Shown here: in pieces, positions 1 through 10,839 of the stretch | Layout of the letters: every line of letters begins with the position of its first letter | Position numbering within the stretch: position 1 is the first letter of the stretch | NCBI GenBank assembly: GCA_046757025.1 | Contig: JBHHXN010000174.1 | Location: 1 to 10,839 of the forward strand | Direction of reading: 5' to 3' | Origin: a bacterium | Lineage (GTDB): Bacteria > Zhuqueibacterota > Zhuqueibacteria > Oceanimicrobiales > Oceanimicrobiaceae | DNA length: 10,839 nucleotides | Position numbers and translations under genes: made by a program | Notes under the pieces: model-generated | What the model was told of the DNA's origin: nothing | Database searches by the model: none | What the model saw: the letters and a program-made list of their open reading frames with translations, nothing else

Positions 1-432
1 CGCCATTTCCAGCTGGCTGTCACCAATGGCCACCATGTGTTTGACTGTGGTGAGCTTCGACTTCAGTTTCGTCACCGATGGTTGCCATTCCGGTGAGTAG
101 ATCAAAATTTTCGGCCCGGCTTCAGCGATGATGTTTTGCAATTCTGCGACGGTCAATCGCCAATTCAGATTGTGCAGGATGGCGCCGGTTTTGTTGCAGG
201 CGAAAAACAAGTCCAGATATTCGGCGCAATTGCTGGCATACACCGAAATCCGATCCCCTTTTCGCACCCCCAGGCTGTACAGGAAGTTGGCAGTTTGATT
301 GACGCGGGCGTTCCAGGCCGCAAAGGAGATTTCTTCATCCGTCAGCGTGTCGAGCAGCGCCGTTCGCTCGGGTGTGAGCCTGGCCCGCTTGTCCAGCCAA
401 TCTGTGACAAAAAATGATTTTTGAGCTTCCAT
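1..432 (-). CDS. Long-chain fatty acid--CoA ligase / AMP-binding (ANL) enzyme, N-terminal 144 aa (3' end lies outside the window)
   Basis: Not in the ORF track because no stop lies in the window. Manual translation from the ATG at 432 gives MEAQKSFFVTDWLDKRARLTPERTALLD...WNARVNQTANFLYSLGVRKGDRISVYASNCAEYLDLFFACNKTGAILHNLNWRLTVAELQNIIAEAGPKILIY..., open to base 1. This is a typical ANL N-terminus (GVRKGDRI, GAI..LNWRL) and aligns with the 4336..5868 paralogue. Confidence 0.92.
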   Translation of the reverse strand, partial: MEAQKSFFVTDWLDKRARLTPERTALLDTLTDEEISFAAWNARVNQTANFLYSLGVRKGDRISVYASNCAEYLDLFFACNKTGAILHNLNWRLTVAELQNIIAEAGPKILIYSPEWQPSVTKLKSKLTTVKHMVAIGDSQLEMA

Positions 433-510
433 CGTTTCTTATTCTTGGCAAGTTTCAATCGCAATGCTGACATCTTATTGAAACTGAAAGGCCGTTTGCA
501 TTCCCACCAA

Positions 511-1557
511 TTAACCCGGTCCCCACTTGACGCAAGCGGCGCCCCAGACGTAACCGATTCCGGCGCCAACCATCATCATGAGATCGCCGGCTTTCAGCCG
601 TCCCTGTTTTTCGCCCTCGATGATGGAAAGAATGCTGTCCTGTTCGCCGATGTGTCCGTAATCGGCTAAATAAACCGAGTTGTCTTCGGTTAATCCCAAC
701 TGCTGCAACAGTTGGCGATGGGCGGAAGGCTTCACCAGAATCAAATTCAGATAACCGATGTCCTTGCGTGAATACGGTTGACCGTCGACTTTGGAGCCGC
801 TTTTCGCCAGTGCCCGGTCGATGCAGTGCAGCCAGTTCTTCATGGAAACTTCGTTGAGGCGGTTTTTCATGGCCTCCGGTTCCACCAGGTCGAAGTAAAA
901 TTGTTTGTTGGCTACCGCTTCGTCCGTGGGGTGTTGCACGGTGCCGCTGGCCGGTACGATGACGTGTTTGCTCATGGAACCGTCGCTCATGAGATGGCTT
1001 CCCAGCACGTGATTATGGGGCCAGTTTTTGCGTAGCAACAGCGCACCCGCGCCGGCGCCGATGTTGAACATAAATGATGTGCGGGAGTTTTGAAGGTTGA
1101 TGAATTTGCTGATGTTGTACCCGCCTGCTATGAGCACGGTGCGGATGTCTTCGTTGTTGAGCATCATATCCCTGGCTTGTTTTAGCGCGGCGATGGTGGT
1201 GCAGCAGCGCATGTGGACATCCATAGCCCAGGCGTTGACCGCGCCGATTTCATGCGCCAGATGAATGCCCGCTGTCCAGAGTAAATACTCTTTCCATTCC
1301 TCGGTGGTACACAGCACTACGTCGATTTCTCGTGGATGGACCTGGGCTGTTTCCAGACAAGATTGCGCCGCACGGATAGCCATTTGATTGGGATGGTCTT
1401 CCGGCCCGGCGATATACTTTTTGTTGATACCCAGTTTTTCGCGCACCACCCATTCAGGTAGGCCGCTTTCCCGGGCAATATCCGCAGCGGTTAAAAACTT
1501 GTTAGGCAGGTAAAATCCGGTACTGACAATGCCAACAGATGAGGTTTGACGGTCCAT
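511..1557 (-). CDS. 3-oxoacyl-ACP synthase III (FabH/KAS III)-fold protein with atypical active site
   Basis: 348 aa. FabH-like motifs: GIVSTGFYLP, EKLGI, AMDVHMRC (Cys118 at the nucleophile position), IGAGAGALLL (GDGAGA-equivalent), YGHIG (YGNT-equivalent), GRLKAGDLMMMVGAGIGYVWGAACVKW. Confidence 0.92.
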   Translation of the reverse strand: MDRQTSSVGIVSTGFYLPNKFLTAADIARESGLPEWVVREKLGINKKYIAGPEDHPNQMAIRAAQSCLETAQVHPREIDVVLCTTEEWKEYLLWTAGIHLAHEIGAVNAWAMDVHMRCCTTIAALKQARDMMLNNEDIRTVLIAGGYNISKFINLQNSRTSFMFNIGAGAGALLLRKNWPHNHVLGSHLMSDGSMSKHVIVPASGTVQHPTDEAVANKQFYFDLVEPEAMKNRLNEVSMKNWLHCIDRALAKSGSKVDGQPYSRKDIGYLNLILVKPSAHRQLLQQLGLTEDNSVYLADYGHIGEQDSILSIIEGEKQGRLKAGDLMMMVGAGIGYVWGAACVKWGPG

Positions 1558-1641
1558 TATTTAATATATCAGATTTGTTTTATTTGCGGGTGCCGGACAT
1601 GCCAGCGATGTTTTTCGCACCTGATCACAAATATTAAATTT

Positions 1642-1687
1642 TTCTCCCGCGCCCGGAAAGGGGCTTCCCTTTGGGGACGCGGGAGAA
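1642..1687. terminator. Strong GC-rich stem-loop just downstream of the TonB-dependent receptor (partial terminator or mRNA-stabilising hairpin)
   Basis: TTCTCCCGCG (1642-1651) pairs with CGCGGGAGAA (1678-1687), with an inner AAAGGG/CCCTTT stem. It lies 18 nt past the receptor stop. On the minus strand it is followed by AAATTTAATATTT rather than a clean U-tract. Confidence 0.6.
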
Positions 1688-1705
1688 TTGCTGAAGATGG
1701 ACAAT

Positions 1706-4180
1706 TTATCGAATGTTGAATTTCAGCTCGGTGGAAAATAACCTGCCGATGGCTGGTGAGGCCACAAATTCCCTCACCTCCGAATCGAAGACGTTGATCA
1801 CCTGGCCTGAGATGGACACGTATTTGTTGATCTGATAGCCCAGGCTAATATCCACGTTGACGAAGCCGCCCAGGGGACCTTCGTTAAAATCACGCCCCAC
1901 GCGCTTTCCTTCGATCACCGATTCGCCGCCGTAAATCAAATCTTCGTTGGTGCTGGCAGCCACGTTGATGCCGGAGAAGAAGTCGTACTCGTCCACCCAG
2001 CGTGCGCCGATGCTGCCAAAAAAGTTGTTTTTATTCACGTTCAATCCGACGTTTAATTTGTGCTTGGGCGTGTTGATGGGCAGATCGTTTTCGTTGACGT
2101 TGCCATCGCGGTTGCCGTCGTTTTTGGAGTCTTTTTCATCCAGGTCGAAGTCGAAATAAGAATAATTCAATTTCAAGTTGAAATGGTTGTTGAAGAAATA
2201 GTTGATGCCGAGATCGAAACCGAAAGTGTTGACTTCGCCAAAATTGAGATAGGTCAGGATAAAGCCCGAGCCGGTGGCCGGCGTGCCGGGAACCACCTCG
2301 CTCATGGGTTGATCGCCTCGGTGCGTGACGAAATTGCCGTTGGCCGCATCCGCAATATTGATCAGCGGACTGATGAAATTTTCGTGCATGTTGTAGTAGG
2401 CGTTGCTGTCGATAAACAATTTTTCGCTCACGACGCCTTTGTAACCCAGCTCGATAGTTTGAATGGTTTCCACTTCCAGCCCGGGAATTTTGGTGCCGTC
2501 GGTGAGCGTAAAACCTTCTCCGTTGCCCAGGAGCAGACCGCCAAAAATGTTGGCACTCAGATTCAAAATAGTCGGGGCGGCAATGCCTTTACCGTATGTC
2601 AGACGCCAGGTGTTGCTGCCGCTGCTGTAGAGCAAACCGCCTTTGGGGATGAAGTTGAAGCCGTACAATTCATGGTCGTCGCCGCGAGCCGCCAGCACCA
2701 CCTCGAAACCGCTTTCCCCCAGCGCCTTTTCCACCTGTCCGTAAACGCCGAATTGGTCCAGATCGATGGAGCCGCCGCTGTCCAATAAATAAGTTCCTTT
2801 GCTGTTCGCCATGTCGCGCTGCCACTGAAAGCCGGCGGTGACATCGAATCCGCTCCAGGAATTGTTGTACTGCACTTCGGCATTCCAGCGTTTGGAGTCG
2901 TCTTTGAAATTGGCCTCTCGGTTTAAGGCAACGCCAAATGCCGAATTCCACTGTTCATGCAGAGAGCGACGCATGGCTTCTTCCTCGGAAAAGCCGGCGT
3001 TGATGAAGCTCAAATAGTTCTGAGTTCTCTGGTTGATGGCATAGGTGTCTTCGGTGATGCTCCAGGTGTGATAGACCTGTGCAAACAGTCTGGGCGAAAC
3101 ATAGCGTGCCTGCACGATGTGCAGCTGCCAATCCTTTATCTGGTTGCGACCGGCATTCGTGACAGACAAATTGTTATTGAGGCTGCCACCGTAGGTCAAT
3201 ATGAAATCCGATTCGTTAGTGGGGCTGAAATAAAAGGAGGCTTCTCCATGCAGGGAGTCGAAATCCCGATCCAGGGCCAGTTCATCGAAGCCCACACCGC
3301 CAACGTACACAGAATCCACGTAATTGAACTCTTCGCCCTGAACATACCCGGCCGCAACTTTAAACGCAAACAAATCGCTCAACACCTGTGCGTGACGGAA
3401 CCGGCCGGTGAAGGTGCTCTGGTTGCCGGCGCCTACTACCGCGGTGGTGCCTTCCGAATTGCGGGGATCTTTGGTAAGGGTGTTCACCAATCCGTTGTGC
3501 GCATTGGGACCGTAGAGAGCCGCTGAAGGTCCCAGAATGACTTCCACGCGCTCGATGTCTTCTTTCACCACGGTACTCAGGGCGCCATATGGCAAGCCAG
3601 TCGCGATAAGGGTGGAAAGCCGGGCATCGTTCATTTGCAGGTTTTTCGGGTTGAACGCGCTGTTGAAACCGCGCACGTTGATGCCCGTGCCCACGACGCC
3701 GGTGCGAACGTAGTCTACGCCTTTTTCATAGGCTAACAATTCGCCGATATTGGCCGATGGGTGCTCCGCAATTTGCTGGGCTGAAATGATGTTGATAGTG
3801 GCCGGCGCATCGGTTAACTTTTCAGGTCGGCGAGAAGCCGTTACCACCACCTGTTCACTCAAAAAATCGGTTTTTTCCAGCGCTGCTTCCACTTTGAGCT
3901 CCTCGTTTTCTACGACGCTTACCGATTGTGAGAACTGCGCAAATCCAATGTACGATACGATCAAAGTGTAGCTGCCGGCAGGTACATTCGTAATAGCATA
4001 TTCCCCCTGCAGATTCGTGGATGAGCCGTAACTGGTGCCTTTCAGATAAACATTGGCGCCGGCTAACGGCTGTCCCGTTTCTTTTTCGGTGACTTTACCA
4101 GAGATACTACCGTTACTGGCCACAGCCACTGAAGAGACCAGACAAATACAAACTGCGATTAACCACCATTTTTTAGTCAT
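1706..4180 (-). CDS. TonB-dependent outer-membrane receptor with N-terminal carboxypeptidase-regulatory-like domain
   Basis: 824 aa. Sec signal MTKKWWLIAVCICLVSSVAVA; N-terminal extension ISGKVTEKETGQPLAGANVYLKGT...; TonB box EQVVVTASRR; plug motifs INVRGF and IERVEVILGPSAALYG..A..GLVN; amphipathic barrel strands; C-terminal NVFD...GRLFSTELKF. RBS AGGAG at 4187-4191. Confidence 0.96.
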   Translation of the reverse strand: MTKKWWLIAVCICLVSSVAVASNGSISGKVTEKETGQPLAGANVYLKGTSYGSSTNLQGEYAITNVPAGSYTLIVSYIGFAQFSQSVSVVENEELKVEAALEKTDFLSEQVVVTASRRPEKLTDAPATINIISAQQIAEHPSANIGELLAYEKGVDYVRTGVVGTGINVRGFNSAFNPKNLQMNDARLSTLIATGLPYGALSTVVKEDIERVEVILGPSAALYGPNAHNGLVNTLTKDPRNSEGTTAVVGAGNQSTFTGRFRHAQVLSDLFAFKVAAGYVQGEEFNYVDSVYVGGVGFDELALDRDFDSLHGEASFYFSPTNESDFILTYGGSLNNNLSVTNAGRNQIKDWQLHIVQARYVSPRLFAQVYHTWSITEDTYAINQRTQNYLSFINAGFSEEEAMRRSLHEQWNSAFGVALNREANFKDDSKRWNAEVQYNNSWSGFDVTAGFQWQRDMANSKGTYLLDSGGSIDLDQFGVYGQVEKALGESGFEVVLAARGDDHELYGFNFIPKGGLLYSSGSNTWRLTYGKGIAAPTILNLSANIFGGLLLGNGEGFTLTDGTKIPGLEVETIQTIELGYKGVVSEKLFIDSNAYYNMHENFISPLINIADAANGNFVTHRGDQPMSEVVPGTPATGSGFILTYLNFGEVNTFGFDLGINYFFNNHFNLKLNYSYFDFDLDEKDSKNDGNRDGNVNENDLPINTPKHKLNVGLNVNKNNFFGSIGARWVDEYDFFSGINVAASTNEDLIYGGESVIEGKRVGRDFNEGPLGGFVNVDISLGYQINKYVSISGQVINVFDSEVREFVASPAIGRLFSTELKFNIR

Positions 4181-4335
4181 GATTTTCTCCTCTCTCTTTG
4201 ATGAATAAATTGAGTGCGTTTTTTTAAATAACGATATGAGTTGTAGCGGGCGGCGCGCGGTCGTTGGCCTTCTCTCCCCAGAACGCAGAAACCGTGTGTG
4301 TAAAAATTTGGGTGCTCATGAAATCGTTACCTTTA

Positions 4336-5868
4336 TCAGGTGGATTTGATCGTCTTTCGCAATTCGGCTTTGTGAATTTTGCCTGCACCAGACAGCGGCA
4401 GACGCTCTTTGAATATAAATTTTTGGGGAATTTTGTATTTGGCCAGATGCTGACGGAGGAAGGACCGTAGATTTTCTGCCGTGGCCGTTTGGTTTTTTTT
4501 CAATACGACAAAAGCGCATCCGGACTGGCCCCAGCGGGTGTCCTCCACCCCGATGACAGCGCACATGGCTACTGCTGGGTGCCGATACAGGACGTCTTCT
4601 ACTTCTGCAGGATAAACATTTTCACCGCCGCTGATATACATATCTTTTAGCCGATCCACGATGTAGAAATACCCTTCCTCATCCACGTAAGCCAGGTCGC
4701 CGGTGTGGAAATAATTGTCTTCGTCAAAAGCGGCCCGGGTGGCCGGTTTATCTCTGAAATAGCCGGTGGTGGCCGATGGCCCGCGCAGCACCAGCTCGCC
4801 GATTTCACCGCTTGCTTTGGGTTGATTGGTCTCGGGATCCACCACCCGCGCGTCCACGAAAAAATTCGGTTTTCCGATGGAGCCGGCTTTGCGCTGCGCA
4901 TCCTGAGCGGCCAGGGAAAACACGCCCGGCCCGAATTCCGTCATGCCGAATCCCTGGCGAAAGACCACGCCTTTTTCTTTTTGATATTTTCGAATCAGGG
5001 GCAGCGGCATGGGCGCTCCGCCGCTCATACAGTAGCGCAGGGAGCTCAAATCGGCCGCAGGCCAGCCAGAAGCCTGTGTCAACATTTGAAAGATGGCCGG
5101 CACACCGCCAAATATGGTGGCGCGTTCTGTTTCGATGATTTTGAGCACCTCATCTGCATCGAATTTTTTCGTTTGAATGACCGTGCCGCCTTGAATCAGA
5201 ATCGGTAAGGAAAACGCAAACAGACCTCCTGCATGAAACAAAGGAAAAATGTTCAAATAAGTGTCGCTGCCAAGCACGTCTCCTAGCAGCGAATTCAAAG
5301 TGTTCCAGACGATTTGACGGTGACTCATTTGGGCCGCTTTTGGCCGGCCCGTGGTTCCGCCCGTAAACAGCAGACACGCCGAGTCCATTTCGGTGATGGA
5401 TTCGCAGGAGACGGGGGTGGCAGAGGAGACCTGGATCGCCCGCTGAAAAGTCACTTTATCATCGCCGTCCAACGGTATCAATTGCGGCATCTCTGGGCAC
5501 GATTTTAAATGTTGCACGATTTGGCCCATGGGCTCCTGCGATGCGTAAAAAAGCACATGGGGTTGCGTGTGCCCAATTTGGTGTTCGATTTCCCGTGCAT
5601 GTAACCGCCAATTTAATGGTAAAAAGATCGCGCCGATTTTGCAGCAAGCAAAGAATGCATCGTAAAAATGCACGCCGTCGTATGCCAGCATGGCCACGCG
5701 CTGGCGCTTTTTGATGCCGGCCGCTTGCAGCCAATTGGCCAGTTTATTGGCCCGTTGATTCAATTGCTCAAACGTATACCGGCGGGCGGGAGCTTCAGAA
5801 TAGTCGATGAGCGCCAGGGAATGGGGGGTGTAAACCGTCCGGCGTGCCAGATAGTCACCGATGTACAT
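4336..5868 (-). CDS. Long-chain fatty acid--CoA ligase / acyl-CoA synthetase (MenE/FadD-like ANL enzyme)
   Basis: 510 aa. P-loop LFTGGTTGRPKAA, PLFHAGG, SGGAP, QGFGMTE, FHTGDL, IVDRLKDMYISGGENVYPAEVE, and catalytic Lys in PLSGAGKI. RBS-like AAGGGG upstream. Confidence 0.95.
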   Translation of the reverse strand: MYIGDYLARRTVYTPHSLALIDYSEAPARRYTFEQLNQRANKLANWLQAAGIKKRQRVAMLAYDGVHFYDAFFACCKIGAIFLPLNWRLHAREIEHQIGHTQPHVLFYASQEPMGQIVQHLKSCPEMPQLIPLDGDDKVTFQRAIQVSSATPVSCESITEMDSACLLFTGGTTGRPKAAQMSHRQIVWNTLNSLLGDVLGSDTYLNIFPLFHAGGLFAFSLPILIQGGTVIQTKKFDADEVLKIIETERATIFGGVPAIFQMLTQASGWPAADLSSLRYCMSGGAPMPLPLIRKYQKEKGVVFRQGFGMTEFGPGVFSLAAQDAQRKAGSIGKPNFFVDARVVDPETNQPKASGEIGELVLRGPSATTGYFRDKPATRAAFDEDNYFHTGDLAYVDEEGYFYIVDRLKDMYISGGENVYPAEVEDVLYRHPAVAMCAVIGVEDTRWGQSGCAFVVLKKNQTATAENLRSFLRQHLAKYKIPQKFIFKERLPLSGAGKIHKAELRKTIKST

Positions 5869-5998
5869 GACGCACCCCTTGCTGAATTTTCTCCATGGCT
5901 CTTTGTCTATCCAGGTGGAATGACATTTGAAAAGCTAAACTCATCATTGCCTGTTTGCTCGATGGATTAATGGTTCTGGTCGCTGTGCTACTCGCAAT

Positions 5999-6817
5999 TC
6001 AATCATTGTTGGAAGGCACAGAAATATTTGAAAAAAACTCAATGATTTCCTGATTGAATTTTTGGTGCATTTCATAAAAGAACAGATGTTTACCCTGGTA
6101 AATGGACAATTTGGCCTGGGGAATTTGCGTGTGCAAACGTCGCACGTCTTCCAAAGGCACCAGCGGGTCGCGTTCGCCTGCGCAGATCAATATTGGCGCC
6201 TGAATGCGTTTGGCCCGCGATTCCCCATCATAAGCATAGCCGGCCAGCAGTTGGCGATAGTAGGCAAATTCGGGTTGCGGATATTCGGTTCGCCAGGCCG
6301 TGATGGCTTCCAGTTCCTGCGGACAGTTTTGCAGGAAATCATCCGTAAAATTAAACCGGTAGCCGTCTTCCAGGCGCTCGCGCCGGTTGCGGCCATGCGG
6401 GCGAATGGTGCGGCAGAGAATATCGCCGTCGGGTCCGATTTGATTTTCTCCGCCCAGAGAGGTGCCCGCCAACGCTAGACCAAGCACGCTCTGCGGCCAC
6501 TGCGCTGCAAAATATTGTGCAATAAACCCGCCCATGGAAACGCCGAGCAAATATACTCTGGGATATTTGAGCTCTTCGAGCAGCACCCGCAAATCCGAGG
6601 CAAACAAAGCCACGGAATAGCGCTGGTCCGGTTTGTCCGAACGACCGCTGCCACGCAGCTCCGGCATGATCAATTCAAAATATTTGGATAATTCTGAAAC
6701 CGACTTCGACCAGAGCCAGTTGCCTGCACCCAGACCAGGAATCATCAGTAGTGGCGCACCCTCGCCGGTTCTTTCAACAAAAAGTTTGATGCCGTTCACG
6801 GCCACTAAGTTGTCCAT
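5999..6817 (-). CDS. Alpha/beta-fold hydrolase (esterase/enol-lactonase-like), cytoplasmic, 272 aa
   Basis: True start re-assigned to MDNLVAVNG (ATG at 6817, GGGGAG RBS upstream) instead of 7279. Oxyanion loop LLMIPGLG, ELRGSGRSDKP, nucleophile elbow GVSMGG, Asp in GERDPLVP, His in GKHLFF. Confidence 0.93.
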   Translation of the reverse strand: MDNLVAVNGIKLFVERTGEGAPLLMIPGLGAGNWLWSKSVSELSKYFELIMPELRGSGRSDKPDQRYSVALFASDLRVLLEELKYPRVYLLGVSMGGFIAQYFAAQWPQSVLGLALAGTSLGGENQIGPDGDILCRTIRPHGRNRRERLEDGYRFNFTDDFLQNCPQELEAITAWRTEYPQPEFAYYRQLLAGYAYDGESRAKRIQAPILICAGERDPLVPLEDVRRLHTQIPQAKLSIYQGKHLFFYEMHQKFNQEIIEFFSNISVPSNND

Positions 6818-6849
6818 GCAAAAGCTCCCCAGGTTGTTCAAATTCAGAG

Positions 6850-7593
6850 TTAAACCAGAATGCCGCCATCCACTGATAACACGGTTCCCGTGATAAACGC
6901 GGCTTCGTCCGATGCGAGAAAAAGGTACGCGTTGGCGATGTCTTCCACGGAACCCATCCTGCCGAGCGGCGTTTTCTGCACCATCAAATCGATGACTTTT
7001 TCCGGTATCGATTGCAGAATTTCGGTGGCGATGAAACCCGGCGCCACCGCGTTCACGCGAATGCCTTTTTTCCCCAGCTCTCGGGCCCAGGTTTTGGTCA
7101 TGCCGATGACTCCGGCTTTGGTGGCGACGTAATTTGTCTGACCAAAATTGCCGTACAAGCCCACCACCGAGGACGCGTTTAAAATGACGCCGCCGCTTCC
7201 CTGACTCTCCATCACTCGGGCAGCAGCCTGCCCACAAAGAAACACCCCCTTCAAATTGACGTCGATGACGCGCTGCCACTGCTCCAGCGCCATTTTCACC
7301 AGGCGGGCGTCCGCTACGATGCCGGCGTTGTTCACCAGAATATCGACTTTACCGAACGTGTCGAGCACTGCGGCAACCATCGTCTGAACGTCGTCGTGGT
7401 TTGTCACATCGACTTGCTTGAACAGAGCAGAGCCCCCGGCCTTTGTGATCTGCTCGACCACCGTTTTCCCGGCCGATTCGTTAATATCTGCAACCGCGAC
7501 TTTGGCGCCCTCTCGTGCAAAAGTCAGCGCGGTTTGTTGCCCAATGCCGCAGGCGGCGCCGGTGATGATAGCTGCTTTGTTTTTTAATCGCAT
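6850..7593 (-). CDS. fabG: 3-oxoacyl-ACP/CoA reductase-like classical SDR (FabG family)
   Basis: 247 aa. TGAACGIG, DILVNNAGI, ASSVVG, catalytic YVATK, NFGQTNY, VNAVAPGFI, ITGTVLSVDGG. RBS AGGAG at 7599-7603. The symbol denotes the family; this is probably not the housekeeping FAS II copy. Confidence 0.93.
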   Translation of the reverse strand: MRLKNKAAIITGAACGIGQQTALTFAREGAKVAVADINESAGKTVVEQITKAGGSALFKQVDVTNHDDVQTMVAAVLDTFGKVDILVNNAGIVADARLVKMALEQWQRVIDVNLKGVFLCGQAAARVMESQGSGGVILNASSVVGLYGNFGQTNYVATKAGVIGMTKTWARELGKKGIRVNAVAPGFIATEILQSIPEKVIDLMVQKTPLGRMGSVEDIANAYLFLASDEAAFITGTVLSVDGGILV

Positions 7594-7618
7594 TTCGACT
7601 CCTGAATCCGTTTTAAGT

Positions 7619-8155
7619 TCAGGCGGCTTTCAAACCCATTTTAACGACGTATTCTTCCACCGACGGCAGCTCCGATTTGGCGAGCTTCCATTCGTTGATG
7701 AAGTGCTTGTATGAGTTGATCAGCTTCATGTTAAATTCCCGCATGCTGATCAAGCGCTCACAAATCGTTTTCAACCTGGCCTTCTCTTCCATGCTAGCCG
7801 CTTGGTATTTTTTCAACATGGGCTGCAAGTGGTTTTCCGCTACCTGTAAATTCTGTTCGTACAACCGCGACAGGTTGATGCTCGCCTGTAGAAATACATC
7901 TGAAGAAATTTGAAAATGATGTTTGCGCTCGCCTTTGACACGCACCCGACGGATCAGGTTGAGCTCCTCTAACCGGCGGCAAATTTGATTGATGGGCGTT
8001 TTGGTGACGTTGAGAACTTCACAAATCTCCTCCACCGAAACCGGTTCGGTTTCACATATCAACAATCCGACCACCCGGCCCATCAATTCGCTGTGACCAA
8101 ACTTGACATAACCGCTGCCAAAATCCTCAATGATTTCTCGTTGAATTTCTTTCAT
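7619..8155 (-). CDS. GbsR/MarR-family winged-helix transcriptional regulator
   Basis: 178 aa. IIEDFG....FG.SELMGRVVGLL...EPVSVEEICEVLNVTKTPINQICRRLEELNLIRRVRVKGERKHHF matches the GbsR-type wHTH pattern (wing G-E-R-K-x-x-F), followed by a helical dimerisation region. GGAG RBS. Confidence 0.88.
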   Translation of the reverse strand: MKEIQREIIEDFGSGYVKFGHSELMGRVVGLLICETEPVSVEEICEVLNVTKTPINQICRRLEELNLIRRVRVKGERKHHFQISSDVFLQASINLSRLYEQNLQVAENHLQPMLKKYQAASMEEKARLKTICERLISMREFNMKLINSYKHFINEWKLAKSELPSVEEYVVKMGLKAA

Positions 8156-8256
8156 TTATTTTCTCCAATCGAGTATTTTTATGAAATATTAGTTCAGAAT
8201 TGTGGAAATTTTCTTGGAAAAGTGATGACGATTCAACTTTTGGCTGTTGGTTTTTA

Positions 8257-8328
8257 GTCTGTCTGCGTCTGCATGCTTCCGCAGGACAGGCAGGCAGCAG
8301 ACAGGTGCTTTTTTTCGCACAGGCAGGC
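8257..8328. repeat. Nested REP-like palindromic element (CTGYCTGC...GCAGRCAG type)
   Basis: CTGTCTGC (8259-8266) pairs with GCAGACAG (8297-8304). ACAGGCAGGC occurs twice (8286-8295 and 8319-8328). Confidence 0.5.
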
Positions 8329-8376
8329 TAATTGCCAATTGCTTAATCGTTCAGAAAATAGATAATTTTTTTGGCG

Positions 8377-9261
8377 TTATTTTTTGGTTTTCTCCGACAA
8401 AAAATCGATCACATCTTGATTGAACTGATTCGGGATTTCCACAAAGAACTGGTGGCCGAGATCCTCATACACTTTGAGCTGACTGTTCGGAATCTTTTTG
8501 TTCAAATTGTAAGCATTGGCAATCGGCACCAGCAGGTCTTTGGTGGCGGCCATGATTAAAGTTGGCGCTTTTATGTGTTTGGCTTCTTCAGATAAATTGA
8601 AGCTCGTACCAGCCGCAATTTGGGCAAGGTAAGCATGTGGCGGTTGCGGATTTTCAAGTCTTAAATCGATCAGATGCTCAAATTCTTCTTGTTGCATAAA
8701 CGTTTTAGAGTACGCCAGCCTGAGTTTTTTACGGGTCAGTTCGCGCGGGTCGCCTTCATTGACAAAAAACATGGCCAGCGTTTCCTTGGACATGGGCACG
8801 TGGTCGGGTCCGCCGGCGCTGGTAGAAACCAGAATCAGGCGGTGGACTTTGTCCGGGTAGCGCAGGGCAAAATCCTGTGCGATGAACCCACCCAGGGAGA
8901 TGCCGAGAATGTGTGCCTGGGGAATTTTAAGGGTGTCCATCAAAGCAGCGAGGTCATCCGCCATCATGGCGACGGAGTAGGGGCCGGGCGGTTTGTCTGT
9001 TTTGCCCACACCGCGATTGTCGTAAACCACGGTGGTGAAGTGTTTGGCAAATTCCGGTGCCTGCTTTTCCCAAATCCAGGCGGCTACGCCCAGACCTTCG
9101 ATCAAAATCAGGTGCGGACCGCGGCCGTAAATTTCGTAATAAATTTCAATGCCGTTGGCTTTGACTGAGTTTGATGGCTGACCGAGCACTGCATGATTAA
9201 TTGGCATGAAAAAAAATCCCATGAAAATGATCAAAAAACACAATCGTGGTTTCTTTGGCAT
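8377..9261 (-). CDS. Alpha/beta-fold hydrolase (esterase/enol-lactonase-like) with probable Sec signal peptide
   Basis: 294 aa. N-terminal MPKKPR-LCFLIIFMGFFFM-PINHAVLG|Q extension; LILIEGLG, YDNRGVGKTDKP, GISLGG nucleophile elbow, Asp in TKDLLVP, His in LGHQFF. Confidence 0.93.
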   Translation of the reverse strand: MPKKPRLCFLIIFMGFFFMPINHAVLGQPSNSVKANGIEIYYEIYGRGPHLILIEGLGVAAWIWEKQAPEFAKHFTTVVYDNRGVGKTDKPPGPYSVAMMADDLAALMDTLKIPQAHILGISLGGFIAQDFALRYPDKVHRLILVSTSAGGPDHVPMSKETLAMFFVNEGDPRELTRKKLRLAYSKTFMQQEEFEHLIDLRLENPQPPHAYLAQIAAGTSFNLSEEAKHIKAPTLIMAATKDLLVPIANAYNLNKKIPNSQLKVYEDLGHQFFVEIPNQFNQDVIDFLSEKTKK

Positions 9262-9404
9262 TTTGTTCTCAGTTTTACGCAGAATGGGTTATCTGTAACT
9301 GCAGCTTGGTTTGAAATCGTTAATTGGAATCGCGCCGCTGGCAGATCATTATTTTTAGTTTTGCTAAAAGCAGGTCAGGATACAAAAGAAAAGAAATTAT
9401 CATT

Positions 9405-9436
9405 ACTGAAAAAACTTTAAAAAAAGTTAATTCAGT
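9405..9436. promoter_or_regulatory. Operator-like 32-bp palindrome
   Basis: ACTGAA-aa-AACTTT-aaaa-AAAGTT-aa-TTCAGT, symmetric about 9420/9421 and overlapping the predicted transcription start of the minus-strand cluster. Confidence 0.6.
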
Positions 9437-9440
9437 TATA

Positions 9441-9469
9441 ACAATAATTAAAATATTTTAAAATGTCAA
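9441..9469 (-). promoter_or_regulatory. Sigma70-type promoter for the minus-strand cluster
   Basis: Perfect -35 TTGACA (9469-9464), 17-nt AT-rich spacer, -10 TATTGT (9446-9441), and AT-rich upstream sequence. Confidence 0.65.
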
Positions 9470-9587: not shown

Positions 9588-10229
9588 ATGGCCAAAAGTT
9601 ATGTTTCAAATAAAGACGAGTCGATTCCATTATTTAAAAATAAATGGCTGGATAAATTTACTTACGTGCATCCCACGGTGCCGGTCATTTTGTACTTACC
9701 GGTCATTGCCTTTTTCATGCGGCGGGGGCTTGTAGCGAATGATTTTACGGTTGCAGCGATTGTGGGATTGTTTGCAGGCGGCTTTCTGCTGTGGACGCTC
9801 ACTGAGTACCTCATGCATCGTTTTGTTTTTCATTTCGAACCGAAATCCCATTGGGGGCAGTATTTACACCATCTCATGCACGGCGTTCATCATGATTACC
9901 CGAATGACTCCCGGCGGCTGGTGATGCCGCCGGTGGTGAGCATTCCGCTGGCGTTTTTCTTTTATGGCCTGTTCACGGTTCTCATTCCGGCGGTCTATCT
10001 TCCCGTGCTGTTCTCTGGATTTGTTTTTGGCTATGTCTGCTATGATGTGATACACTACGCCACGCATCATTTCCCTATGAAAGGCCGAATCGGTTTGTGG
10101 CTTAAGCACCACCATATTCGGCACCACTACCAAAACCCCGAGCTGGGTTATGGCGTCAGCTCGCCGCTGTGGGATGTGGTTTTTGGCACGACCTTTCCGG
10201 AAAAAGCGCAGGAGAAGAGCGCGGGTTAA
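9588..10229 (+). CDS. Fatty acid hydroxylase / sterol desaturase superfamily membrane di-iron enzyme (FA2H/Scs7-like, no cytochrome b5 domain)
   Basis: 213 aa. His boxes EYLMHRFVFH, HHLMHGVHH, YDVIHYATHH, HHHIRHH; HHDYPND..RLVMPP and YGVSSPLWD.VFGT motifs typical of fatty acid 2-hydroxylase-like proteins; hydrophobic TM segments. AGGAGG RBS at 9577-9582. Confidence 0.93.
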   Translation: MAKSYVSNKDESIPLFKNKWLDKFTYVHPTVPVILYLPVIAFFMRRGLVANDFTVAAIVGLFAGGFLLWTLTEYLMHRFVFHFEPKSHWGQYLHHLMHGVHHDYPNDSRRLVMPPVVSIPLAFFFYGLFTVLIPAVYLPVLFSGFVFGYVCYDVIHYATHHFPMKGRIGLWLKHHHIRHHYQNPELGYGVSSPLWDVVFGTTFPEKAQEKSAG

Positions 10230-10548
10230 GAAAGATGGTCATGGAATGAGGGTATAGGGTATAAGAGAAGTAAGCGTGGATTTTCACTATCGTGAACTGG
10301 CAGACTTTTGTGCACGAATTGCCTGCAGCTCATAATGCCTCTTGTAACAACTTGCCTGGGGTAAAGAAATACAGAACATTTGAGCTGCAACTTAGAAATA
10401 ACATTTGAGATGGCATAAAGCCATTCCTTAAAAAAAGGGTTCCTCATCAGAATTTGTGGGTAGAGATACTATGTCTTTTCGCAGGCTAGCGGCGGAAAGA
10501 TAGCCCCGGCACACGTCTGGGTAAATTGAAAAGGAAACTCGAAACATT

Positions 10549-10583
10549 CCGATTGCCGATTTGGGATTGGGGATTGCGGAATT
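10549..10583. repeat. Degenerate heptamer tandem repeat (5 units)
   Basis: CCGATTG CCGATTT GGGATTG GGGATTG CGGAATT. Confidence 0.65.
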
Positions 10584-10593
10584 ATCATGGAAA

Positions 10594-10788
10594 TAGTGTT
10601 TGAACGGAAGCTCGCCATTTTGTCATTCTGAGGAGCGCAGCGACGAAGAATCTCATACAGCCCAATTTGCGAAAATGCAAAAGTGGTAAATTCGTGCAGA
10701 GGGTTTGTTCTCTGAACAAATAGACTCGGTGGGAAAAGATTCTTTGGTCGCGGGCTGCCTCAGAATGACATTTTCCGTTCAGACACTA
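10594..10788. mobile_element. Non-autonomous composite inverted-repeat element (MITE-like with internal REP-like arms)
   Basis: Terminal IR TAGTGTTTGAACGGAA (10594-10609) / TTCCGTTCAGACACTA (10773-10788), 15/16 match. Inner IR TGTCATTCTGAGG..GCGAC.AAGAATCT (10621-10653) / AGATTCTT.GGTCGC..CCTCAGAATGACA (10737-10770). No ORF inside. Confidence 0.7.
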
Positions 10789-10790
10789 AA

Positions 10791-10839
10791 TAGTGATTGA
10801 CCGAAAAGTCCATATTTCTTCACCCTGAGCCCTTCGACA
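10791..10839. mobile_element. Left end of a second related inverted-repeat element (truncated by the window)
   Basis: TAGTGATTGACCGAAA (10791-10806) matches the first element's terminus at 13/16. It is followed by the REP-like arm TCACCCTGAGCCCTTCGACA. Confidence 0.5.

Follow-up and report, generated by a model that had tools for sequence, protein, structure and literature searches.

A conserved TonB receptor, hydrolase and acyl-CoA enzyme locus of KSB1-type vent bacteria, a candidate importer of 3-hydroxybutyrate oligomers

In the polysaccharide utilisation loci (PULs) of Bacteroidota, which carry SusC/SusD, and in the carbohydrate utilisation containing TonB-dependent transporter (CUT) loci of Xanthomonas, a receptor, an exported hydrolase, an inner-membrane carrier, cytoplasmic enzymes and a regulator are encoded together. 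Poly(3-hydroxybutyrate) (PHB) is classically mobilised by a depolymerase or oligomer hydrolase and a 3-hydroxybutyrate (3HB) dehydrogenase, followed by ScoAB or acetoacetyl-CoA synthetase, whilst the uptake of soluble PHB fragments released by other organisms has so far been poorly defined. Here we describe an operon of an uncultured deep-sea-vent bacterium, on contig JBHHXN010000174.1 of assembly GCA_046757025.1, the whole of which (10,839 bases) was analysed and is called the window below. It encodes a TonB-dependent receptor together with two serine hydrolases (hydA, hydB), two acyl-CoA ligases (ligA, ligB), a short-chain dehydrogenase/reductase (SDR), a regulator and an enzyme of family PRK06840 with the fold of β-ketoacyl-acyl carrier protein synthase III (KAS III), hereafter the KAS. 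With a probability of roughly two in three, the operon imports soluble (R)-3HB oligomers, the products formed when PHB of other cells is broken down, through the receptor and degrades them in a CoA-dependent manner to acetoacetyl-CoA. The nearest published idea concerns the TonB-dependent transporter MASE_06600 of Alteromonas macleodii, which is induced under carbon limitation and, in the paper's account of this gene, is predicted from a neighbouring PHB depolymerase to take up PHB products (PMC7190382). As for the KAS, described enzymes with a comparable active site are ChlB3, a KAS III-like acyltransferase with a Cys113-His296-Asp301 set and a ping-pong transfer, and CerJ, which acts likewise in making an ester (PMC9573744).

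Gene calling with Pfam and NCBIfam scans bore out the arrangement described in an earlier note on this DNA, namely at least eight co-oriented genes with the receptor between an acyl-CoA ligase and the KAS III gene. Eight minus-strand genes lie between positions 1 and 9261, with intergenic gaps of 25–221 nt (Table 1). As the note had also held, no gene for acyl carrier protein (ACP), FabD, FabZ, FadL or SusD was found in the window by these scans, and Pfam detected no glycoside hydrolase family among its nine proteins; a crude ACP motif search across all related loci from L021 on gave no match. The ordinary plsX-fabH-fabD-fabG-fabF cluster of the genome was located from translations on contig C85, its FadL-family gene lies on contig C27, and three strong thiolase matches lie outside the window.

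The receptor is a genuine member of this locus. The KAS was matched in 19 of 167 genomes of the phylum and the receptor in 23, with all 19 falling within the 23. A total of 17 of the 18 KAS loci of relatives were fetched and all 17 contain the receptor, in at least three different places (after ligA, after ligB or after the regulator). As a control, enzyme neighbours of this kind within 10 kb were obtained for only one of the 29 receptor-like loci of the genome, namely that of the window, although many of the contigs are short. Of the metagenome loci selected by the receptor (n = 27, with L076–L078, which have 23-residue matches, left out), 16 contain at least two of hydrolase, ligase, SDR and KAS-like gene, eight contain one and three none, and those with one or no enzyme class are short stretches of 2–9 kb. 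The receptor was also found in 12 of 401 sampled Bacteroidota genomes, plus five in two order-level samples (251 and 201 genomes), and 18 Bacteroidota receptor loci harbor a hydrolase in 14, a ligase in 13 and a FabH-like gene in 11 cases. A cultured carrier is Chondrinema litorale WSW3-B12, in which OQ292_RS29205-29235 comprise fabG, a KAS III-like gene, a symporter, a ligase, a hydrolase, a hypothetical protein and the receptor. The co-occurrence of receptor and KAS that the earlier note put to a gene-neighbourhood test holds, and the conserved gene content of relatives supports its view of a coherent uptake-and-catabolism locus.

The 120 best relatives of the receptor are 61–78% identical to it and carry the labels KSB1/Calditrichaeota, Bacteroidota, Longimicrobiales and Ignavibacteriaceae, whilst all NCBIfam receptor models scored far below cut-off. 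Its structural model (made without the last 21 residues; predicted local distance difference test, pLDDT, 85.6) matched Cir/BtuB folds in Foldseek at 17–18% identity, and the structure search gave generic TonB-dependent receptor matches only. No SusD was recognised next to the receptor in the gene listings of relatives. By sequence comparison, the receptor is placed in a conserved, uncharacterised clade without a SusD partner; the FastTree tree gave long-branch warnings at the root and was used for clade membership only. An inner-membrane carrier follows the operon in 14 of the relatives' 17 loci, being a sodium:solute symporter in nine and a major facilitator superfamily (MFS) carrier in five, while in Chloroflexota, the Bacilli class and haloarchaea the KAS family is accompanied by a LIV-type ATP-binding cassette (ABC) importer instead of the receptor. 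The transport module is thus swapped, receptor plus symporter in diderms and ABC importer elsewhere, whilst the core stays constant. Two further proteins were observed near such loci. A protein of 470–480 aa is regular in Bacteroidota loci (L064:7998-9431, with homologues in L070, L071, L073, L080, L083, L084, L122 and L124–L126); it has no Pfam or NCBIfam match and is TPR-like according to its Atlas name, and no function was gained from the Atlas searches. An exported protein of ~520 aa without a family match is encoded at L027:7428-9002 and L063:11064-12608, and in L027, an Ignavibacteriae locus where no TonB receptor was found, it may be an alternative outer-membrane part.

Since the substrate markers occur only in the loci of relatives, the substrate is inferred for the window. 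In two of the 18 Bacteroidota loci, L080 and L122, whose receptors are 57% and 52% identical to that of the window, a 3HB dehydrogenase above the TIGR01963 cut-off stands directly behind the receptor and hydrolase, and in L122 it is adjoined by ScoA and ScoB; seven SDRs of related loci passed this cut-off of 307. Among 18 Chloroflexota KAS loci, a 3HB dehydrogenase is present in five and a MaoC-like (R)-hydratase in 12 (six confirmed by Pfam), and in L120 the operon ends with a PhaE-like and two PhaC-like genes. Class III PhaC occurs within or beside the operon in five of the 27 metagenome loci (two PhaC above cut-off, one PhaE by Pfam). In the Bacilli class, where the KAS family was present in 54 of 250 scored genomes and 20 loci were fetched, the short-chain-length polyhydroxyalkanoate (scl-PHA) depolymerase model NF050089, the PhaZ family of the B. 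thuringiensis type, was passed in 11 of the 20, together with a thiolase and a FabG-like SDR in all 20, a CoA transferase and a LIV-type ABC importer in 19 each and an acetate kinase in six. Read as gene context, these four marker types, found in four lineages, all point to (R)-3-hydroxybutyrate and its esters. The genome of the window (5.96 Mb, 94.8% complete) yielded no PhaC, no 3HB dehydrogenase above cut-off and no PF10503 depolymerase, which fits a scavenger dependent on a CoA route. PHA oligomers, one of the candidate substrates of the earlier note, are now leading by the relatives' markers, whilst no context marker was seen for its other candidates, long-chain lipids and acyl-homoserine lactones (AHLs). 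A B. thuringiensis-type phaZ was also sought as a neighbour of the Bacillus KAS and was not seen in L092 or L095; in these Bacillus and Brevibacillus loci an exported NHL-repeat protein after the KAS (L092:9987-11849, L095:10046-11944) replaces the α/β hydrolase. For the ligand of RPA4397, neither the main text of PMC3223731 nor a full-text literature search gave an entry, and a full-text search for TTHA0199 gave nothing.

Whilst gene content, conservation, co-occurrence, active-site residues and folds were observed, the substrate and activities of the proposed route are drawn from gene context. The receptor would carry 3HB oligomers across the outer membrane and the exported hydA would trim them in the periplasm, after which a sodium:solute symporter or MFS carrier of the kind seen in relatives, and here lying beyond the contig end or missing, would move the short species inward. 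In the cytoplasm, hydB would release the monomer and the two ligases would form CoA thioesters of the monomer and probably of the dimer, whilst the PRK06840 enzyme might shift 3-hydroxybutyryl from the oligomer ester to CoA (ester thiolysis), giving 3HB-CoA with no ATP spent. The NAD-type SDR would then oxidise (R)-3HB-CoA to acetoacetyl-CoA, from which a thiolase encoded outside the window would yield acetyl-CoA.

The KAS residues Cys118, His302 and Asp307 are conserved in 96, 99 and 101 of 104 aligned relatives, respectively, with the His and Asp five residues apart, as in the CerJ/ChlB3-type set. In the alignment register to FabH, the site of FabH His244 is occupied by Ile273 (Leu272-Ile273-Leu274) and that of FabH Asn274 by His302, so the Cys-His-Asn triad of FabH is lacking, and the FabH model TIGR00747 gave 113.5 against a cut-off of 292. 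The model of the KAS (pLDDT 96.7) has the KAS III fold, with Z ~39 and 20–23% identity to FabH. Judged by these residues, the enzyme carries a ChlB3/CerJ-type Cys-His-Asp set, and its predicted activity is acyl transfer and not chain building, in agreement with the acyl-transfer role that the earlier note had given it. The part of that claim which had the KAS stand in place of a thiolase did not hold, since a thiolase is present in the same locus as the KAS in all 20 Bacilli-class loci; the same was seen in six of the 27 metagenome loci. Once the hydrolases, CoA activation, the dehydrogenase and the thiolase have been assigned, what remains for an acyltransferase is the transfer of 3-hydroxybutyryl between oligomer ester and CoA, and the ATP so saved would suit retention of the KAS in small-genome lineages with acetate kinase. 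Ester thiolysis is nevertheless the weakest step of the route, and even if the substrate is right its chance appears to fall somewhat short of even. The family was found in 21 of 201 sampled Chloroflexota genomes as well as in the Bacilli-class sample, and also in haloarchaea. Bacteroidota loci harbor a different FabH-like paralogue with Tyr at the His302 position, and the presence in L080 and L122 of a 3HB dehydrogenase but no KAS is compatible with two different routes that start from one imported substrate. A second PRK06840 paralogue (~35% identical) was observed with a third ligase in some KSB1-type loci (L023:15252-17798, L034:2652-4081), and L048 and L059 contain the second paralogue alone, without the first. 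No publication on PRK06840 was found in the full-text literature search, and the portion of PMC3734047 covered holds nothing on ester thiolysis.

Of the remaining enzymes, hydA has a predicted triad of Ser122-Asp242-His270 (motif reading), its best NCBIfam match is PcaD with 148.6 bits, below cut-off, and its nearest solved structure is Est1 (6EB3/8V16, E 1e-50). Most KSB1-type orthologues of hydA have, as judged by eye, a hydrophobic or lipobox-like N-terminal leader, and hydA is likely an exported periplasmic oligomer esterase. The predicted triad of hydB is Ser94-Asp217-His244 (motif reading), and the gene begins with the ATG at 6817 and not with the GTG of a longer frame, which overlaps the SDR gene. 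The SDR carries Asp36 at the cofactor position and Ser142-Tyr155-Lys159, which is of the NAD(H) type; all 31 listed relatives have Asp or Glu at the cofactor position, unlike the FabG of the genome itself, which has no acidic residue there. With 195.4 bits against the cut-off of 307, it did not pass the 3HB dehydrogenase model TIGR01963. It is likely, from its residues and context, an NAD-type (R)-3-hydroxybutyryl-CoA dehydrogenase, which lends support to the NAD-type (R)-3-hydroxyacyl-CoA dehydrogenase of the earlier note. The ligA protein scored 463.9/476 on PRK06187 and 411/748 on PRK06839, both under cut-off, whilst the orthologues of the truncated ligB are full-length in relatives, with 511–519 aa.

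Table 1. Genes and candidate regulatory features of the operon in the window.
Feature	Position	Strand	Basis or remark
hydA, α/β serine hydrolase, 294 aa	8377-9261	-	Pfam Abhydrolase_1; hydrophobic N-terminus
MarR/GbsR-like winged-helix regulator, 178 aa	7619-8155	-	Pfam MarR_2 above cut-off
FabG/PhaB-like classical SDR, 247 aa	6850-7593	-	NCBIfam FabG models 294.7/296 and 289.8/297.75, marginally below cut-off
hydB, cytoplasmic α/β serine hydrolase, 272 aa	5999-6817	-	Pfam/NCBIfam; 39% identical to hydA
ligA, AMP-forming acyl-CoA ligase, 510 aa	4336-5868	-	Pfam AMP-binding
TonB-dependent receptor, 824 aa	1706-4180	-	Pfam plug, barrel and CarboxypepD_reg, above cut-off
KAS III-fold enzyme, PRK06840 (NF005308), 348 aa	511-1557	-	439.8 bits against cut-off 315
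ligB, second AMP-forming CoA ligase, first 144 aa	1-432	-	truncated by contig end
Candidate sigma-70-type promoter, TTGACA-17 nt-TATTGT	9441-9469	-	10/12 matches
Candidate operator, imperfect inverted repeat CTGAAwwAAC-N10-GTTwwTTCAG	9406-9435	.	immediately 3′ of the -10 box
Strong stem-loop	1642-1687	-	right after the receptor stop codon; no U tract; -38.3 kcal/mol, z -5.3

Several points weigh against the import and catabolism of 3HB oligomers. Neither the window and its genome nor any of the 17 genome loci from the same phylum yielded a 3HB-specific marker, and class III PhaC was detected in none of the 167 phylum genomes, with a model that does match in G587. Of the hydrolases in Chloroflexota, Bacteroidota and KSB1-type loci, 47 were scored on NF050089 and none passed, hydA and hydB reaching 73.9 and 62.4 bits against a cut-off of 300, and the nearest solved structures of ligA are the feruloyl/fatty-acyl-CoA synthetase entries 8WEU/8WEV (E 1e-108), of which the feruloyl likeness is unfavourable. 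The five PhaEC loci share one metagenome assembly prefix, and the four of them placed on the tree form one clade; the counts overstate independence because the Bacilli-class, several Chloroflexota and the PhaEC loci are kin. The enzymes are absent beside the receptor in four Bacteroidota loci (L086, L090, L091 and L123; 36–42% identity) and beside a distant receptor in two same-phylum loci, L096 and L097, and within the window a strong hairpin separates the receptor and KAS genes. By their size, dimers and trimers of 3HB could enter through porins, and it is hard to explain why a TonB receptor should be needed unless the oligomers are longer or scarce; thiolysis of an oxygen ester is uphill by ~10 kJ/mol and would need pulling. 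The further-reaching joint claim, that the receptor clade of KSB1, Bacteroidota and other diderms is a dedicated PHB-oligomer importer and that PRK06840 is an ester thiolase running the CerJ reaction in reverse, by which the energy of the ester bonds in 3HB oligomers would be kept in 3HB-CoA, appears rather unlikely.

The alternative that survives best, which we consider quite improbable, keeps the same logic in KSB1 with another hydroxy-acid ester, such as medium-chain-length PHA fragments, 3-(acyloxy)acyl lipid pieces or rhamnolipid precursors, or 4-hydroxybutyrate esters or lactones. It would account for the 17 same-phylum loci without any 3HB marker and for ligases whose best matches are long-chain or aromatic acyl-CoA ligase models, the two ligases and at times a second KAS/ligase pair (L023, L034) suggest breadth, and a larger substrate would suit a TonB receptor better. 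Against this, some loci of the nearest receptor clade have class III PhaEC within the operon itself, receptors 52–57% identical adjoin a 3HB dehydrogenase, and similarity annotation revealed no longer-chain acyl-CoA dehydrogenase or hydratase in the same-phylum loci. The sole candidate for a 4-hydroxybutyryl-CoA dehydratase, an HpaB-family gene of L028, is without the cysteine motif sought and was not confirmed.

Catabolism of aromatic (hydroxycinnamate-type) esters would follow the Rhodococcus cou and Corynebacterium phd clusters, in which hydroxycinnamate side chains are shortened in a CoA-dependent manner. A feruloyl-CoA synthetase is the best solved match of ligA, the MFS partner's best, though weak, match is an aromatic acid/H+ symporter model, the binding protein of the L026 ABC importer resembles those of the R. 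palustris type, and MarR regulators are typical of such clusters. This route requires a hydratase and a dehydrogenase together, yet FabG-like SDR and MaoC mostly alternate, the former being absent from all 18 Chloroflexota loci and the latter from all 17 same-phylum loci. Genes for ring cleavage or demethylation were not seen in the loci and the 3HB/PHA markers would stay unexplained; we regard this route as very improbable.

We give an equally small chance to a biosynthetic cluster, whether for an OleABCD-like olefin or β-lactone, an ACP-independent acyl metabolite (the alternative that the earlier note had offered) or 3HB oligomers, with the receptor serving re-uptake or being unrelated. At family level, a KAS III-fold enzyme with SDR, ligase and α/β hydrolase resembles OleABCD, and the PhaC neighbours could mean that synthesis is fed. 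OleABCD, however, has an OleA-type condensing enzyme, an extended-SDR OleD and an Asp-nucleophile OleB, whereas the window encodes GxSxG serine hydrolases and a classical 247-aa FabG-type SDR, and in the profile search OleA structures matched only the N-terminal half of the KAS and ranked far below FabH. Importers rather than exporters stand beside the core in every lineage, which speaks against the biosynthetic proposal of the note, and the thiolase, CoA transferase and acetate kinase neighbours point to catabolism. ChlB3 and CerJ do work in biosynthesis, according to the part of PMC9573744 that deals with them.

Still less probable is the scavenging or quenching of AHLs, which is suggested by Est1 as the nearest solved structure of hydA; by its length, this structure is probably the 268-residue esterase Ade1. 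Ade1 is promiscuous and is reported to be active on tributyrin, Tween-20 and hexanoyl-homoserine lactone (bioRxiv 10.1101/2020.12.16.421545). An opened lactone leaves an amide that requires an acylase, and no acylase was seen in the loci. AHLs moreover pass membranes without a TonB receptor. That the receptor transports a metal chelate or B12 and is merely situated among these genes is hardly credible: the nearest folds are Cir, BtuB, PirA and PfeA and database labels read 'iron complex outer membrane receptor', but these fold matches are at 16–18% identity, no NCBIfam receptor model comes near its cut-off, and the receptor changes place inside the operon but remains part of it from phylum to phylum.

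Regarding regulation, the earlier note had placed the genes behind a predicted promoter/operator. A candidate promoter lies upstream of hydA; such sites are no more frequent than chance in the window (11 against 9.7 expected from shuffles), but of 21 upstream regions compared among relatives, 16 contain TTGAC at a comparable place. The candidate operator scores ≥13/18 on the consensus in 10 of 21 relatives, and the consensus has two sites genome-wide at one mismatch; the shuffle test of the operator is circular because the pattern was built from the same sequences. Orthologues of the regulator, with 50–72% identity, are present in most related loci, and the regulator likely represses by binding the inverted repeat, which would lie over the transcription start. 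The note's gene list was incomplete here, the regulator gene being left out of its title and reasoning and the candidate operator, like the inner-membrane carrier of relatives, being missed. A fold with z ≤ -3 (mononucleotide shuffles) lies directly 3′ of the receptor in 13 of 17 relatives, whatever the position of the receptor, and the stem-loop is likely a stabiliser of the receptor mRNA or a partial terminator.

The window is the entire contig (C174), and the genes beyond position 1 are unread because this position is the contig end; neither the remainder of ligB nor an orthologous symporter was found elsewhere in the genome's assembly. The stretch is present in four DNA metagenome runs of one hydrothermal-vent study, one of them possibly the source, and no RNA run was listed with it; the contigs of the four runs span it with no joints and no indels, those of two runs reaching ~150 nt beyond the left edge of the window. 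The record of a same-family relative carries the label candidate division KSB1. Substitutions in sister-run contigs are clustered at 490-1075, over the 3′ half of the KAS gene, which suggests strain variants. At the other end, 10529-10839 contains repeated non-coding elements, each present on many contigs. One is ~200 bases long and has inverted arms (10594-10609/10773-10788 and 10621-10647/10744-10770), and another repeat occupies 10782-10839; probably these are small mobile or repetitive extragenic palindromic (REP)-like elements that made the contig end here. Between hydA and the regulator, a stretch of 83 bases (8269-8351) recurs on contig C206 with 90% identity. A PF04116 fatty-acid hydroxylase family gene (9588-10229, plus strand) is divergent from the operon and was rejected as a member of the locus, with no homologue in any fetched related locus. 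Contig C149:668-3308 harbors three adjoining genes that resemble, in a bacterium, the archaeal mevalonate module of 3-hydroxy-3-methylglutaryl-CoA (HMG-CoA) synthase, thiolase and DUF35; the thiolase matched PF00108, the other two being judged from their translations.

The locus is real, conserved and uncharacterised. It offers a candidate for an outer-membrane importer of a polymer that is not a sugar and gives PRK06840, an orphan enzyme family, a testable role, and it suggests that vent KSB1 bacteria recycle the storage polyester of other cells. Oligomer-consuming cross-feeders are described in the main text of a soil-PHA review, where the word 'transporter' does not appear (PMC13372988). 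No publication on this cluster and none on TonB-dependent uptake of 3HB oligomers was found in open full-text searches, with subscription papers and supplements outside their scope. What the window newly contributes is the receptor-coupled KSB1 form, the direct link of receptor, BdhA and ScoAB within the same receptor clade and the candidate operator. If the proposals are true, the receptor clade and PRK06840 would form a cross-feeding route, so far undescribed, for the most common storage polymer of bacteria, which is also a main bioplastic, and ester thiolysis by the KAS would be a new, ATP-saving reaction for the fold, useful in bioplastic recycling.

In comparison with known systems, the locus follows the working logic of a PUL or CUT locus but belongs to neither kind. 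It resembles these in uniting receptor, exported hydrolase, carrier, cytoplasmic enzymes and regulator, whereas it has neither SusD nor a glycoside hydrolase, its enzymes are esterases and acyl-CoA enzymes, and its receptor scores 86 against 368 on the SusC/RagA model TIGR04056. MASE_06600 is nearest by its predicted substrate; its role is a prediction only, and no CoA ligase, SDR or KAS is described there in the paper's account (PMC7190382). With classical PHB mobilisation the locus would share substrate and end point, and PhaZ-family, BdhA and ScoA/B genes occur in relatives' loci, but the window has a ligase and a probable NAD-type CoA-ester dehydrogenase in place of BdhA, its hydrolases are not members of the B. 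thuringiensis PhaZ family (NF050089; PDB 8YNV), and an outer-membrane importer and a KAS III-fold enzyme are added. From OleABCD it differs in its hydrolases and SDR, as set out above. The KAS shares fold and catalytic Cys with FabH but is without ACP, FabD and FabZ partners in the window, the genome's own FabH residing in the C85 fab cluster. CerJ and ChlB3 are absent from the top 50 structural matches of its model, where many KAS III folds tie, and their sequence similarity to it is weak (E 1e-9 for CerJ, 9e-6 for ChlB3). With ChlB3, as its triad is given in PMC9573744, the KAS shares the fold and an equal triad spacing (Cys118/His302/Asp307 against Cys113/His296/Asp301), whilst it differs from both enzymes in standing in a catabolic context with no ACP or polyketide synthase partner.

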